The notes under the pieces are model-generated. The model ran no database searches. It saw nothing but the letters and a program-made list of their open reading frames with translations, and was not told the DNA's origin. DNA of 64,000 bases from Escherichia phage HK6, in sequence record PP724615.1; one strand, written 5' to 3'. Position 1 is the first letter of the stretch. Every line of letters begins with the position of its first letter. Below, in pieces: positions 2,492 to 33,506 of this stretch. The translations under genes and the position numbers were made by a program.

Positions 2492-3007
2492 TTACTTCGC
2501 TTTACGCTTGCGAGCTGGTTTAGCAGATTTACGGGCAGAATCACCCGTGAACTTAATGCCTACACCGTAACACAGAGCGCGAACGTTATCTTTACTATAC
2601 TCTACGCCAAAGATATTTGGCTTAACAGAACCAAACTGTCCACGAGCATCACGTAGTACGTCTGCCGTTGGTTTACGCTTCTGGTTAACTGCTTTCTCAT
2701 AGTCTTTCATAGCCATGCCATTACGAGAGAACAATTCAGCCCCAGCGTTGAAGCTCAGGGAAACTGGGACAGATTTGTGGCCGTAATTTTCTACATACAT
2801 AACCATTTTGTAGGATTTACGGGTGGCATTTTTAGCTTTAGGCTTCTGACGAATCGGAGCCGGATTATTCAGTGCTTGTGCAGCCTGAGCATCGGTAGGA
2901 TGCTTACGCAGGTGGCGTTCCAGACGAGCTTTGCGATTAGCCTCGGTCTGCGGGAAAGTTTTAACTGCCGGAGCTGCTTGAGTTTTTGCGTTTTTCTGCT
3001 TAGCCAT
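2492..3007 (-). CDS. basic Lys/Arg-rich protein, possible abundant nucleic-acid-binding protein
   Basis: 171 aa, strongly basic N- and C-termini; host-optimal codons (CGT, CTG, GGT, AAA); consensus promoter 3046-3074 just upstream on minus strand. Confidence 0.5.
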   Translation of the reverse strand: MAKQKNAKTQAAPAVKTFPQTEANRKARLERHLRKHPTDAQAAQALNNPAPIRQKPKAKNATRKSYKMVMYVENYGHKSVPVSLSFNAGAELFSRNGMAMKDYEKAVNQKRKPTADVLRDARGQFGSVKPNIFGVEYSKDNVRALCYGVGIKFTGDSARKSAKPARKRKAK

Positions 3008-21148: not shown

Positions 21149-21559
21149 ATGACTACTCCAACTCAGTGGACTGATGAACTGTTCGAAAAAATGTCTTCCG
21201 AATACGTTGCTCGCATGGAGCAATTTCCAGAGGATGAACGTCCGGGTGTTAGCATGGAAATTGTTAGCGAAATTGCCCAGGAAAATGGTGTAACTCCGAA
21301 TGGTTTTCGTATGAAGCTAACTAAAGCAGGTGTGTATATCAAGAAAGCTGCTGGCTCCGCTTCTAAATCTAGCGCATCTACTGGAGAAAAAGCTTCTGGT
21401 GGTTCTCGTACTTCTAAAGCCCAAGCTCATGCCGACCTTCGTTCAGCATTCTCTGATGCTGGCCTAGCACCAGATTTTCTGGATGATGCAATTATCGACA
21501 AACTGACCGGTAAAGCGGCTGCTCATCTGGCAGAAGCAATCCGAGCTATCACTAAGTAA
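21149..21559 (+). CDS. hypothetical protein (probably highly expressed)
   Basis: 136 aa; host-optimal codon choice; Ser/Ala/Gly-rich linker. Confidence 0.45.
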   Translation: MTTPTQWTDELFEKMSSEYVARMEQFPEDERPGVSMEIVSEIAQENGVTPNGFRMKLTKAGVYIKKAAGSASKSSASTGEKASGGSRTSKAQAHADLRSAFSDAGLAPDFLDDAIIDKLTGKAAAHLAEAIRAITK

Positions 21560-21942: not shown

Positions 21943-22251
21943 ATGAGCGAACAGGTAAATCAAAACTATGAAGGACACGTTGATGACCAGTCCATCATAC
22001 TCTGGGAGAAGGAGGGAGAACAAGTAAGATTAACAGTATCTGAATTTCGTGGGAATCTATACATGGGTATTCGTTACTGGCTTCTTGATATTAATGATGA
22101 ATGGTTTCCAACGAAATCTGGCTTCTCTTTTCCTTACACCCTAGAAACAACATCACAGCTTTTCTATGCGTTTACACAGATTCTTAGCGAATCTGAGGTT
22201 TTACATGAGGTACAGAAACGAGCTGAAGAACTCAAAGCCAAGAATGCCTAG
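21943..22251 (+). CDS. hypothetical protein
   Basis: 102-aa ORF. Confidence 0.4.
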   Translation: MSEQVNQNYEGHVDDQSIILWEKEGEQVRLTVSEFRGNLYMGIRYWLLDINDEWFPTKSGFSFPYTLETTSQLFYAFTQILSESEVLHEVQKRAEELKAKNA

Positions 22252-23582: not shown

Positions 23583-23725
23583 TACATAACCCTTTGCTAC
23601 CCATCTACCATATCGGAATTATAAAGTGGTTATTGACATTTTCGCCGCTTAGGTATATACTATTATCATTCAGTTGAGGGATAGAAAGTTATGGCGAGGG
23701 TAAGCAAAGTTAGTTAAAATTGTAG

Positions 23726-23754
23726 TTGCTAAATGCTTAAATACTTGCTATAAT
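23726..23754 (+). promoter_or_regulatory. sigma70-type promoter inside the ligase split
   Basis: TTGCTA, 17 bp, TATAAT then ATTTATATAAATTGATAAGGAAG. Confidence 0.6.
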
Positions 23755-23781
23755 ATTTATATAAATTGATAAGGAAGAAAT

Positions 23782-24564
23782 TTGATGAAAATCGAAATTC
23801 CAACACAATGTCCCTCTTGTGGTTCTAAGCTAGATCTTGTCAACGGACAATTATTCTGTAGGAATAAGTCCAACTGTCCAGCGCAATCAAGTAAGTTAAT
23901 TGAGAACTTCTGTTCAAAAATGAAGTTAAAGGGCTTTGGCCCAAAAACTATTGAGAAGCTGGAGCTGACGAAGATTTCAGAACTATTTTACCTAACCGAA
24001 GAAGATTTGGTTAGAGCCGTGGGTAGCAAGGTTGCCGCTAAGTTAATTAGCGAATTAAATACTAAAGTTCGCGGAGGCATTGACTTTGGTTCAGTTCTCG
24101 GTTCTTTAGGAATCCCTCTAATTGGAGAGGTTGCAGCAAAGAAATTATCCCAAAATTGCACTAGCTTCCACGATGTGAAGGCTGACGGCAAGGCTGGAGA
24201 AAACTATAAAGCCTGGCTAAATTCCCCACAAGGCAAGGATGTTATCGAACTACCGTGGAAATTCTCAACTGGTATTAAGGGCACTAAAGCCGACATCATC
24301 ATTACAGATGAGTTAGTTGCCCAGCCAAATGGAATCGCGGTATGTATTACCGGATCTTTGCAAGATTTTGCAAATCGAACGGATGCAACAAACTATTTAG
24401 AGAGTCTAGGATATACGGTTAAGAAATCCGTTACCAAAGACGTCAAATACCTAATCTGTGAGGATGAATCAAAACGTTCTTCCTCATCTTATAAGAAAGC
24501 CGAAACGAATGGGATAGAAATCCTGTCGATTAAAGAACTATTGGAGAAAAATAATAATGTCTAA
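23782..24564 (+). CDS. NAD-dependent DNA ligase, C-terminal (Zn-finger/HhH/BRCT) part
   Basis: Four-Cys zinc finger CPSCGS...CRNKSNCP, HhH-like GIPLIGEVAAKKL, BRCT-like CITGSL. Confidence 0.65.
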   Translation: MMKIEIPTQCPSCGSKLDLVNGQLFCRNKSNCPAQSSKLIENFCSKMKLKGFGPKTIEKLELTKISELFYLTEEDLVRAVGSKVAAKLISELNTKVRGGIDFGSVLGSLGIPLIGEVAAKKLSQNCTSFHDVKADGKAGENYKAWLNSPQGKDVIELPWKFSTGIKGTKADIIITDELVAQPNGIAVCITGSLQDFANRTDATNYLESLGYTVKKSVTKDVKYLICEDESKRSSSSYKKAETNGIEILSIKELLEKNNNV

Positions 24565-25324
24565 ACTGAACTGGAACGTAGAAGGTGTAACCGAGTCTCT
24601 GAAAGCAAAAGCCACTGCTCTGGGTGTTGCTGTAATCTCTCAAGAACAAGTAGCTGCTATCGCTGCTGAACTGGCTGCTGAAACTGGCAAAGATGTTACT
24701 GCTCGCTCTGTTGGCTCTAAACTGCGTAAAGAAGGTTTTGAAGTACAGAAAGCTAACGAAGTGCAGAAATCTCCGTGGACTCCTGAGCAGGAAGCTGAAC
24801 TGGTTGATTTCCTGAACGCTCATGCTGGTCAGTATACCTATGCTGAAATCGCTGCTGCTGTAGCTGGTGGTCAGTTCGGTGCTAAACAGGTACAGGGTAA
24901 GATCCTGAGTCTGGAAATGACCGCTTCTGTTAAACCAACTGAAAAAGCTGCTGCTGTTCGTTCCTTCACTCCGGATGAAGAAACTGATTTTGTTAATCAG
25001 GTTGTTGCTGGTGCTACTATTGAAGCTATCGCTGCTCACTTCGGTCGCAATATTAAGCAGATCCGTGGTAAAGCTCTGAGCCTGCTTCGTGAAGGTCGTA
25101 TTGCTGCTATGCCGGTACAGGAAACTTCAAGTGCTAAAACTCGTGAAGATCTGTTAGAAGGTCTAGATCTGGTTAACATGACTGTTGCTGAGATCGCTGA
25201 GAAAACCGGTAAGTCTGAGCGTGGTGTTAAATCTATGCTGTCTCGTCGTGGTCTGGTTGCTAAGGACTATGATGGTGCCGCTAAGCGTGCTAAACTGGAT
25301 GCAAAAGCTGCGGCTGCTGAATAA
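24557..25324 (+). CDS. four-repeat HTH-like protein (probably highly expressed)
   Basis: Four ~55-aa internal repeats each containing an (A/V)EIA...G(K/R)xxxx(V/I)xxKxLSxxxxG core; strongly host-optimal codons. Confidence 0.5.
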   Translation: MSKLNWNVEGVTESLKAKATALGVAVISQEQVAAIAAELAAETGKDVTARSVGSKLRKEGFEVQKANEVQKSPWTPEQEAELVDFLNAHAGQYTYAEIAAAVAGGQFGAKQVQGKILSLEMTASVKPTEKAAAVRSFTPDEETDFVNQVVAGATIEAIAAHFGRNIKQIRGKALSLLREGRIAAMPVQETSSAKTREDLLEGLDLVNMTVAEIAEKTGKSERGVKSMLSRRGLVAKDYDGAAKRAKLDAKAAAAE

Positions 25325-25341: not shown

Positions 25342-25377
25342 AAGGGGAGGGGGCTATGCTCCTTCCCCTTTTTGCAT
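25342..25377 (+). terminator. rho-independent terminator
   Basis: AGGGGAGG...CCTTCCCCT stem followed by TTTTGCATTT. Confidence 0.55.
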
Positions 25378-25406: not shown

Positions 25407-26879
25407 ATGACCTTGTTTAACGTGCAAGCTGTAGTGTTGAAGATGCTTCTCGCTTCCGAACAGAAGCAAATAGCATTGGAAACATTCTCAAAACTGCATA
25501 AAGATCATTTTAATGACGCTTTCTCCTCAATTTACCAAGCCGTCCAGAATTATTATAAAAAATATAACACAATGCCGTCCATTGACGCACTTATGCTTGA
25601 AGCTAATAGGAACGCCCGCCTTTCTCAAGCTCTAGTCGTCTTAGCTAACACTCAAATTCCAGAAGTGAGCATGGAACAGGCACTTGAAGTCCTAGAGGCC
25701 GAATATACACAGGATTTATTCCTGAAGCTTCTAGAAACAGACGTGCTTCAAGATTTAACAATGCTGGATCAGGGAGAAATTCTCAACCGAGTTGCCTCCC
25801 TTCACTTAAAATTAGAAGAGAAAGTAACGAATACTGGAAAAGTATTCAACGCAGATAACATGCGTATTTTCCAGAGAGAAGAAGATACCAAACTGAACTT
25901 AATCGCTCTTGGTATTTGTAATGAGTTCGACGCTCAAATTGGTTTAGCTCGCACAGAAACGTTACTGCTTGGTGGTTGGCGTGGTACTGGTAAATCCATT
26001 ATCTGTTCAAACATACAGGTTCAGCAATATTTGAATGGGGATATTGCTCCATACTTCTCAATTGAGATGAAAGAACATGAAGTATTTAGACGTAATCTAG
26101 CCATGTTAGCTGGTGTATCAGCATTAGCAATGCGTAATAATACTCTAGAAGGTGCAGCTCTATTAAGATTAGCCAGAACTAGAGCTAGAATGTTTAATGG
26201 TGGTGAAGAGCTTTTCGATAACTTCGTTAAACAGTACACAATGGCTAAGATGAGTGATTTCTACGATATGGAGAGTAAACTAATAGAAGGGTATGAGCTA
26301 CATACTCCTATGATTATTGTTTATGACCCTGAGCTGTCTATTACAACAGTTGACGTAGAATTAAATAAATTAGTTGCTAGATATGGAGATAAAGTTACAG
26401 TAGCTTTACTGGACTATATTAACCAAACCCGACTTCCAGATTCTAAAACCATTGATATGTATGACTGGAAAGAACAGATGGTTGTTAGCTCGTCTTTCAA
26501 ATCTATCTGCCAGAAACATAACGTGGCTGGTGTAGCTCCTTACCAGATCGATCAAGATGGTAGAACACGTATGTCAAAGGGGATTCTTGATTCCGCAGAC
26601 ATGGCTGCTAATCTTAATGCTGCAAAAGCTGATAATGGTCAAGGTGCTATTATGTTTGACTTCGTTAAGACTCGTTCTTCTGATAGCGTGAAGTTTATGC
26701 CTAAAATGAACTGGGAAACTCTGCGAATGGATAACACTACCAACCTAGCAATGGAAGATATATCTCAAATGGAAGCTGAGTTCGTTATCCCTATTGAGAA
26801 GGATAAGCCGGCTCAACCTAAACGTGCTAAGAAAGACAAAACTGAAAATTCAACAGGTGAACAGGCCAGCGATATATGA
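25407..26879 (+). CDS. putative replicative helicase (DnaB/RecA-like ATPase)
   Basis: Walker A GGWRGTGKS. Track ORF starts 25356 inside the terminator hairpin; ATG 25407 (MTLFNVQ) after AAAGGAGA is preferred. Confidence 0.5.
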   Translation: MTLFNVQAVVLKMLLASEQKQIALETFSKLHKDHFNDAFSSIYQAVQNYYKKYNTMPSIDALMLEANRNARLSQALVVLANTQIPEVSMEQALEVLEAEYTQDLFLKLLETDVLQDLTMLDQGEILNRVASLHLKLEEKVTNTGKVFNADNMRIFQREEDTKLNLIALGICNEFDAQIGLARTETLLLGGWRGTGKSIICSNIQVQQYLNGDIAPYFSIEMKEHEVFRRNLAMLAGVSALAMRNNTLEGAALLRLARTRARMFNGGEELFDNFVKQYTMAKMSDFYDMESKLIEGYELHTPMIIVYDPELSITTVDVELNKLVARYGDKVTVALLDYINQTRLPDSKTIDMYDWKEQMVVSSSFKSICQKHNVAGVAPYQIDQDGRTRMSKGILDSADMAANLNAAKADNGQGAIMFDFVKTRSSDSVKFMPKMNWETLRMDNTTNLAMEDISQMEAEFVIPIEKDKPAQPKRAKKDKTENSTGEQASDI

Positions 26880-32455: not shown

Positions 32456-32740
32456 ATGCTTACAGAGCCTGATGCTCACCAATTATTGGTCGGTTCCTCA
32501 TTCATTTTGAATGAATCAACAATAGTTGATAATCCAAATAAATTGTCTAATAGACAACTGGCAGAATATCTAGGAATTTTAAGTCTACGAAATTATGCCG
32601 AATACAAGTTTACAAACGATCCTAGTTTGGACATACAATATGTTCCAGTATGGATACCACGTTTAGTAATCGACACTAACCCACTAATCGCAATTAACAA
32701 ATCGAAATTAATCTTTAAAGAGGAAATAAAATATGGCTAA
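32456..32740 (+). CDS. hypothetical protein
   Basis: 94-aa ORF. Confidence 0.35.
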   Translation: MLTEPDAHQLLVGSSFILNESTIVDNPNKLSNRQLAEYLGILSLRNYAEYKFTNDPSLDIQYVPVWIPRLVIDTNPLIAINKSKLIFKEEIKYG

Positions 32741-33506
32741 GTCTTGGGGCGAAACTACTGGCGGTTCTAACGATAAAATCGAATTCCTGAAGTTCAACAA
32801 CGGTATCACTCGTGTTCGTATCGTTTCTGGTGTTCTTCCACGTTATGTTTATTGGCTGACTAATAAAGATGGTAACGCAGCTCCTTTCGAATGTCTCCGT
32901 TTTAACCGTGACAAAGAGAGTTTTGTTCGTGGTAAAGCTGATCCGGTTCATGAGATGGGCTTCTTCGAGAAAGAGCTGGATAAAGATGGTAATCGTGTTC
33001 CGCTGAAACCGAAGAAAAACTATATCGCTTTTGTTATCGACCGTTCTGATAACAAACTGAAGGTAATGGAAGTCAAGGCTACTATTCTGAAAGGCATCCA
33101 GTCTATCATGAAGCAGTTGAGCCTGGCAACTCCGTTTGATATTGATATTTCTATCGAGAAAAAAGGTAAAGGTTTCGATACTGAGTATGATGTACAGCAG
33201 ATTGCTGCTATGCAGTTCCAGATTAAGCTGCAAGATCCTAACAGTGCGGAATCTAAGCAATATGTTGCGGATGTAGATCTGATCGGTGAAGCTATGTGTG
33301 ACGAAGATGGCGACATCATTAAGTTCGAAAAAGTTCCTTCTCTGGAACAAACCTATCCGGTTCCTACCTATGAAGAGCAGAAAGAAGCAATCCAAGCCTT
33401 CATGGAAGGTCGTGAGAATAAAGATGATGATGCCAAATCTGGTAATAGCAATGCAGGCTCCCAGAAAGGTATTGACTCAGAAGCTGCAAGCGATCTAGAC
33501 GACTAA
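32733..33506 (+). CDS. abundant DNA-binding protein with acidic C-terminal tail (D5/SSB-like)
   Basis: 257 aa; host-optimal codons; C-terminus DSEAASDLDD resembles acidic tails of phage SSBs; terminator directly downstream. Confidence 0.5.
   Translation: MAKSWGETTGGSNDKIEFLKFNNGITRVRIVSGVLPRYVYWLTNKDGNAAPFECLRFNRDKESFVRGKADPVHEMGFFEKELDKDGNRVPLKPKKNYIAFVIDRSDNKLKVMEVKATILKGIQSIMKQLSLATPFDIDISIEKKGKGFDTEYDVQQIAAMQFQIKLQDPNSAESKQYVADVDLIGEAMCDEDGDIIKFEKVPSLEQTYPVPTYEEQKEAIQAFMEGRENKDDDAKSGNSNAGSQKGIDSEAASDLDD

Follow-up and report, generated by a model that had tools for sequence, protein, structure and literature searches.

Gene D5 of the T5-like Escherichia phage HK6 combines four helix-turn-helix units with the strongest codon bias of its region

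An open reading frame (ORF) of 255 amino acids is present at positions 24557 to 25324, on the plus strand and with its ATG at 24557, of a 64,000-nucleotide stretch of the DNA of Escherichia phage HK6 (sequence record PP724615.1), termed the window throughout. An earlier sequence-only reading of this stretch, made by a model without database searches, had placed at exactly these coordinates a protein with four internal helix-turn-helix (HTH)-like repeats and host-optimised codons but did not recognise the ORF as a classic named gene. Alignment with the product of gene D5 of phage T5 (T5.118, YP_006946.1) detected identity at 254 of 255 residues over an equal length, the single substitution being D25 in T5 and A25 in HK6. 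The protein also matched PHROG 323, “transcriptional regulator, D5-like”, over residues 1 to 253 (E value, 1.5e-71). At the DNA level, sequences 95 to 99% identical to the gene were found in more than 400 records of T5-like Salmonella and Escherichia phages, where matching records are labelled “D5 protein”, “putative transcription factor D5” or “DNA-binding protein D5”. As both full-length homology and the conserved position between ligB and the helicase, primase and polymerase genes were observed, the gene belongs to the T5 D5 family (PHROG 323) and represents D5 of a T5-like phage (Demerecviridae), encoding the same protein as that of T5. The gene itself is thus an ordinary one, and its product is a named T5 protein that has been studied biochemically since 1979. 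The features of the locus are as follows.

23633..23661 (+): sigma-70 promoter TTGACA-17-TATACT, counterpart of T5 P-K28b, upstream of ligB-D5 (11 of 12 matches in a consensus scan; T5 identity)
23726..23754 (+): second sigma-70 promoter TTGCTA-17-TG-TATAAT, counterpart of T5 P-K28a (consensus scan; T5 identity)
23782..24564 (+): ligB, NAD-dependent DNA ligase subunit B, upstream of D5 in one transcription unit (ORF list; annotation of T5 and relatives)
24543..24546 (+): Shine-Dalgarno sequence GGAG, 10 nucleotides before the D5 ATG (read from the sequence)
24557..25324 (+): D5 coding sequence, 255 codons plus stop, orthologue of T5.118 (ORF list, T5 alignment, PHROG 323)
25342..25370 (+): intrinsic terminator-like hairpin with a 13-bp stem containing 8 GC pairs, followed by TTTGCATTT, 18 nucleotides past the D5 stop (sequence scan)

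The stop codon of ligB and the start codon of D5 overlap by 8 nucleotides. Positions 23600 to 23790 of the window are 100% identical to the part of T5 in which promoters P-K28b and P-K28a are annotated; these promoters were reportedly characterised in Bujard's laboratory and are said to be among the very strong promoters of T5. T5 and the window agree in the genes on either side of D5, in the promoter sequence upstream and in the place of D5 in the genome, and the gene order ligA-ligB-D5-helicase-primase-polymerase is common to T5, Proteus phage PM135, Vibrio phage River4 and the HK6 window. Homologues of D5 were detected in 902 phage records; among the matches listed, all were phage genomes of approximately 104 to 128 kb, and those annotated genomes that were checked belonged to the Demerecviridae. 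In a set of 1.84 billion proteins clustered at 50% identity, matches to D5 were found in 166 clusters.

The internal structure of D5 was examined by comparisons of single sequences, by alignment of family profiles and with an AlphaFold2 model built from 106 relatives. Four units, termed R1 to R4, and a C-terminal helix were delimited, with helices given by residue number.

24563..24742 (+): R1, residues 3-62; helices 11-22, 29-43 and 49-58; invariant W6, R50, K55, L56 and R57 (AlphaFold2, alignments)
24767..24928 (+): R2, residues 71-124; helices 76-88, 95-101 and 109-118; Myb-like WTxEQE..L start; isoelectric point (pI) 4.7 (AlphaFold2, hhalign, Pfam)
24956..25108 (+): R3, residues 134-184; helices 139-150, 155-162 and 166-178; clear paralogue of R2 (hhalign, shuffles, Pfam HTH_23, AlphaFold2)
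25130..25270 (+): R4, residues 192-238; helices 210-217 and 221-231; first helix not confidently predicted (Pfam Sigma70_r4_2, AlphaFold2)
25271..25321 (+): C-terminal helix, residues 239-255; motif DYDGAAKRAKLD; D237, G240, A241 and K246 conserved (alignments; AlphaFold2 helix 240-254)

A core motif was present in each of the units, reading AAIAAEL..GKDVTARSVGSKLRKEG in R1, AEIAAAV..GAKQVQGKILSLE in R2, EAIAAHFGRNIKQIRGKALSLLREG in R3 and AEIAEKTGKSERGVKSMLSRRG in R4. When the four units of 14 family members were pooled and aligned with MAFFT, all of them fell into a single register, with a shared pattern of [W/Y/F]-[T/S/N]-x-[E/D]-E..L in helix 1, xxxIAxx in helix 2, a G+ turn and R/K.V..K in helix 3. 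The AlphaFold2 model had a mean predicted local distance difference test score (pLDDT) of 91.9 and contained complete three-helix units at residues 11-58, 76-118 and 139-178, a shorter HTH at 210-231 and the C-terminal helix at 240-254. The first helix of R4 was not predicted to be helical, residues 191-200 having a pLDDT of 76. The predicted template modelling score was low (0.49), indicating that the domains are arranged as beads on a string, with no fixed mutual arrangement.

The four repeats were not equally related to one another. In single-sequence comparisons, performed with 500 shuffles each and with R2 taken as residues 71-130 and R3 as 131-190, the R2-R3 score (z = 7.4) was reached by none of the shuffles. 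The scores for R1-R4, R2-R4 and R3-R4 were marginal (z of about 2.1 to 2.4, reached by 14 to 17 of 500 shuffles), and those for R1-R2 and R1-R3 were no higher than expected by chance. Profiles of the units cut from a 27-sequence family alignment were compared with hhalign, which gave a probability of 95.8% and an E value of 7e-9 for R2-R3, followed by R1-R4 and R3-R4 (both 2e-4), R1-R3 (5e-3), R2-R4 (1e-2) and R1-R2 (0.11). A search at the DNA level within D5 for a repeat of about 165 nucleotides detected only GCT-rich low complexity, indicating that the duplications of the units are old and that no recent internal duplication has occurred. The four-fold HTH architecture put forward in the sequence-only reading is, therefore, real, being carried by the core motif, the common register and the helical units of the model; clear homology in sequence was seen only between R2 and R3, R1 and R4 being divergent, and R1 could not be told from chance against R2 or R3 as a single sequence. 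Obvious paralogy is limited to R2 and R3, and R4 is either truncated or the unit that has diverged most.

The number of units is not constant. Some relatives contained five HTH units (P0124, P0183, P0202 and P0210), the additional unit of P0124 being an extra R2; hence, the repeat number varies between four and five within the family. Long arrays of similar HTHs were also found in other proteins. R4 together with the following “KDYDGA.K” tail occurred as a stand-alone module in two proteins otherwise unlike D5 (P0237 and P0242), fused to transmembrane or zinc-ribbon proteins, which suggests that R4 and the tail may act as one functional unit.

A scan of D5 and 106 family members against Pfam detected HTH families on every unit across the relatives. 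In D5, Sigma70_r4_2 (PF08281) matched residues 204-230 of R4 above threshold (28.7 bits against a cut-off of 25.7), and it also matched 98 of the 106 members; the other matches among the members were of HTH_23 to R3 (64 members), Myb_DNA-binding to R2 (23 members) and HTH_33/32 to R1 (about 20 members, the count for HTH_33 being 20). For R1 of D5 itself, the HTH_33 match was weak, and a design variant of the engrailed homeodomain was matched with an E value of 3.8e-4. The match of R4 to sigma-70 region 4 was restricted to the HTH part of the model (positions 23-49 of 54). No match to Sigma70_r2 was detected in D5 or in any of the 106 relatives, and regions 2 and 3 of sigma-70 factors have no counterpart in D5. 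The possibility that D5 is itself a sigma factor was rejected on the basis of the missing regions 2 and 3 and of its absence from the proteins identified in RNA polymerase preparations (see below).

A possibly closer likeness was seen to GcrA, a cell-cycle regulator of Caulobacter (PF07750; PDB 5YIU). The pooled repeat profile aligned to the N-terminal domain of GcrA with a probability of 94.9% and an E value of 4.7e-8, the GcrA sequence used having been entered by hand and then validated as PF07750 at an E value of 1.2e-26. The Pfam GcrA family, in turn, matched 8 of the 106 members, all below threshold. In D5, such units occur four times in a row, and for the C-terminal domain of GcrA that interacts with sigma-70 region 2 no counterpart was found, D5 being filled by the four HTH units and the 17-residue helix; the likeness is, therefore, at the domain level only. 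HMMER searches of PDB sequences with full-length family and pooled-repeat profiles gave no significant match to GcrA or Myb, the matches being limited to designed variants of the engrailed homeodomain and to de novo coiled coils. In a whole-chain Foldseek search of the PDB nothing reached an E value of 1e-3, the best match being the Myb repeats of SNAPC4 (7xur_A, 9e-3). Arrays of the Myb/SANT and homeodomain-like type (c-Myb R1-R3, SNAPC4, CDC5L and the bipartite domains of Tc3 and Mos1) likewise consist of tandem three-helix HTHs of about 50 residues on flexible linkers, and R2 and R3 of D5 begin with a Myb-like W/F-T-x-E-E..L motif. D5 does not, however, appear to keep the three evenly spaced tryptophans that mark true Myb repeats, and the Pfam Myb score was 17.6 against a cut-off of 24.4. 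At the level of sequence and predicted fold, D5 thus resembles the GcrA and sigma families as far as a single small domain is concerned and appears to be a member of neither. The earlier description of the units as small HTHs was borne out by Pfam and AlphaFold2, while “sigma region-4-like” is apt for R4 only; taken as a whole, the unit appears to be closer to the DNA-binding domain of GcrA and to Myb/homeodomain-like HTHs.

Codon usage was compared between D5 and the other ORFs of the window. The sequence-only reading had noted an almost exclusive use of CTG, CGT, GGT and GCT, differing from the neighbouring genes, and this proved to be a real property of D5. CTG accounted for 16 of 19 leucine codons (16% in the other ORFs), CGT for 10 of 12 arginine codons (48%), GGT for 17 of 19 glycine codons (54%) and GCT for 40 of 45 alanine codons (49%), so that these codons made up 83 to 89% of the respective codons in D5 and 16 to 54% in the remaining ORFs. 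The codon adaptation index (CAI) of D5, calculated with Escherichia coli weights entered by hand, was 0.709, ranking first of 65 ORFs (mean, 0.283; standard deviation, 0.109), and the effective number of codons (Nc), which is free of any reference set, gave the same rank with the lowest value (30.5; first of 56 ORFs; mean, 44.9; standard deviation, 5.6). Next in strength of bias came the genes for the major head, SSB-like and D3 DNA-binding proteins, products that are all expected to be abundant; the codon bias of D5 thus exceeds even that of the major head protein. The GC content at third codon positions (GC3) was only 0.306, within the range of the neighbouring genes, indicating that the bias is due to a choice of particular codons and not to GC enrichment. 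A scan of the window for tRNA genes found none.

Strong bias was also observed in distant orthologues, the D5 gene ranking first of 40 ORFs by Nc in Vibrio phage River4 and second of 35 in Proteus phage PM135. The preferred leucine codons in the Vibrio and Proteus orthologues (CTA, TTA) differed from that in HK6. These results are evidence that strong codon bias of D5 is conserved across the Demerecviridae while the preferred codons are host specific, which fits optimisation to the host of each phage and high expression. In particle preparations of phage phiR2-01, the D5 homologue is among the proteins with the highest spectral counts (PMC8624392). A high abundance of D5, as proposed in the sequence-only reading from the codons, is supported by the top-ranking codon bias, by the identity of the promoters to P-K28b and P-K28a and by these spectral counts.

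Other ORFs of the window came to attention during the codon analysis. The fifth-highest CAI (0.50) was that of an ORF of 171 amino acids at 2492-3007 (-), matching PHROG 4516; this value places it alongside D3 and the genes for the head and SSB-like proteins, and it may encode another abundant protein. Small early proteins cluster near D5, namely, D3 (PHROG 1725; 21149-21559), a 102-amino-acid ORF of PHROG 4053, “transcriptional regulator” (21943-22251), and the SSB-like protein (PHROG 1607; 32733-33506), with elevated codon bias in D3 and the SSB-like gene. An antisense ORF at 24530-25039 (-), encoding 169 amino acids of Ser/Phe-rich, low-complexity sequence, was discounted as a gene, since it seems to result from the richness of the sense strand in GCT and CTG codons.

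D5 was originally defined by conditional-lethal mutants. In biochemistry papers of 1979 to 1983, binding of D5 to duplex DNA is said to have been cooperative and non-specific, and Fujimura and Roop, in 1983, reportedly described effects of gpD5 on the T5 DNA polymerase in vitro. The RefSeq annotation of T5 describes D5 as a DNA-binding protein that is needed for DNA replication and late transcription and has a part in the shutoff of expression. McCorquodale et al. (J Virol 29:322, 1979) is the source cited for the function of D5 in PMC12630848. All classes of T5 genes are transcribed by the sigma-70 polymerase, and the mechanism of switching between them has been called unknown (PMC7472727). 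In the same study, T5 proteins were identified from bands of RNA polymerase prepared from infected cells, and D5 was not one of them, a result that fits action through the DNA rather than through the polymerase.

More recently, T5 D5 has been described as the natural HTH trigger of the type IX retron-Kva2 (bioRxiv 10.64898/2026.07.11.737809, July 2026). In that work, D5 is a 26-kDa monomer, is toxic when expressed alone and remodels the retron-Kva2 complex in mass photometry; an AlphaFold3 prediction has a D5 HTH binding the stem-loop of the retron msDNA (multicopy single-stranded DNA), mimicking the winged-helix protein of the retron. The escaper mutations reported in D5 were G53D, W74*, V149I and G232D. 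On the domain map obtained here, G53 and G232 are nearly invariant positions that fall within the third helix of R1 and of R4, respectively, or directly behind it, and the conserved aromatic residue at the opening of R2 is W74 (codon at 24776-24778 of the window).

Taking DNA binding and the mutant phenotypes from the literature and the T5 annotation, and the identity, operon, architecture and codon bias from the present analysis, we propose that D5 is an abundant early duplex-DNA-binding protein, many copies of which coat the phage DNA and so drive early shutoff, replication and late transcription; that the switch works through such a coating is the part that we infer. A probability of about 0.75 is assigned to this reading. 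D5 and ligB are co-transcribed from the two tandem sigma-70 promoters, with D5 translated from its own GGAG site and the transcript stopping at the hairpin past the stop codon, and the codon bias, the strongest in the window, would allow stoichiometric production of the protein. The 27-kDa product presents four small HTH domains on short linkers, followed by the conserved C-terminal helix. Each HTH would touch DNA with little sequence specificity, and the several weak contacts per monomer would result in a coating of the duplex phage DNA. Such a coating would shut off the early sigma-70 promoters and would prepare the phage DNA, as it replicates, for late transcription and for replisome function. 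The near-complete identity to T5 D5 and the T5 RefSeq annotation also support the earlier suggestion of an abundant DNA-organising or transcription-modulating factor.

Several observations weigh against the coating model. With a pI of 6.8, D5 is near-neutral, and R2 is acidic, unlike typical basic nucleoid proteins; some of the units may, therefore, bind protein rather than DNA. The viable W74* escaper is at odds with D5 being essential, although a mixed population or suppression may account for it. The hand-entered weights behind the CAI also count here, Nc, which needs no reference set, giving the same ranking.

A different account of the late-transcription requirement is that D5 is a GcrA-like, sequence-specific activator of late promoters, an HTH of which docks and recruits or reprograms the sigma-70 RNA polymerase. 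The alignment of the pooled repeats to the N-terminal domain of GcrA, albeit to a sequence entered by hand, is in favour of such an activator, as are the annotated need of late transcription for D5 and the transcription of every T5 gene class by the sigma-70 polymerase, with a switching mechanism described as unknown. We nevertheless consider it unlikely, since the sigma-interacting domain of GcrA is missing, the Pfam GcrA matches are few and below threshold, GcrA was not retrieved from the PDB by HMMER and D5 is not among the proteins identified in the polymerase preparations; furthermore, a site-specific regulator would not be expected to exceed the major head protein in codon bias. The main role of D5 could instead lie in the replisome, as a duplex-binding partner of the T5 polymerase or helicase that modulates strand displacement or the use of nicks, with the effects on transcription being secondary. 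The position of the gene between ligase and the helicase, primase and polymerase genes is strictly conserved even in distant genera, the T5 annotation has D5 as a requirement for DNA replication, and the conserved C-terminal helix and acidic R2 could be surfaces for protein contacts; the effects of gpD5 on the T5 DNA polymerase, reportedly described by Fujimura and Roop, also speak for this role. Stoichiometric abundance, however, is more than a replisome subunit would need, and such an accessory role is compatible with the coating model rather than exclusive of it; as the principal function of D5 we regard it as quite improbable.

The codon bias might also have an origin that is unrelated to expression, either because the gene was acquired recently from a bacterial host or as an artefact of the amino acid composition of the protein. 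D5 is rich in alanine and glycine, and its GC content is 0.469 compared to a window average of 0.392. Both CAI and Nc, however, were computed within each amino acid, the GC3 lies within the range of the neighbours, and the bias persists in the Proteus and Vibrio orthologues with other preferred codons, an observation that argues against acquisition from the host. Together with the 902 phage records, the restriction of the listed homologues to phage genomes and the small number of clusters, these results make this explanation very improbable, and a host-derived gene was rejected on the basis of the listed homologues, the GC3 and the differing codons of the relatives.

The DNA-binding domain of GcrA discriminates the methylation state of DNA. 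By analogy, D5 might read the physical state of T5 DNA, i.e., whether it is replicated or unreplicated, nicked or modified, and act as a sensor that flips sigma-70 polymerase from early to late promoters; we offer this as a speculation that is doubtful on present grounds. If it were true, the variation between four and five units would tune the footprint of D5 on the DNA.

As a discovery these findings carry little weight, D5 having been known since 1979 with attention renewed by its role as a natural trigger of a type IX retron. A modest addition is the clearer domain map of four GcrA/Myb-like HTH units and a conserved C-terminal helix, with only R2 and R3 as recent paralogues, and a second, small one is the evidence for conservation of extreme, host-specific codon bias of D5 across the Demerecviridae. 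The map could guide the design of truncations for studies of DNA binding by D5, of the triggering of retron-Kva2 and of the early-to-late switch of T5, which is mechanistically unsolved.

Two minor observations were made downstream of D5. The hairpin at 25342-25370 encloses the ATG at 25356 that corresponds to the start of the DnaB-like helicase gene D6 in the T5 annotation, and an alternative in-frame ATG, preceded by AAGGAG, is present at 25407. Either the hairpin also controls translation of D6 or the annotated start of D6 is too far upstream. Further downstream, the helicase and primase genes of the window abut directly at 26876-26879, whereas in T5 and in Salmonella phage EH7 they are separated by an additional gene, annotated as the HNH endonuclease hegJ in T5 (between D6 and the primase) and as hypothetical in EH7; the window thus lacks this insertion.
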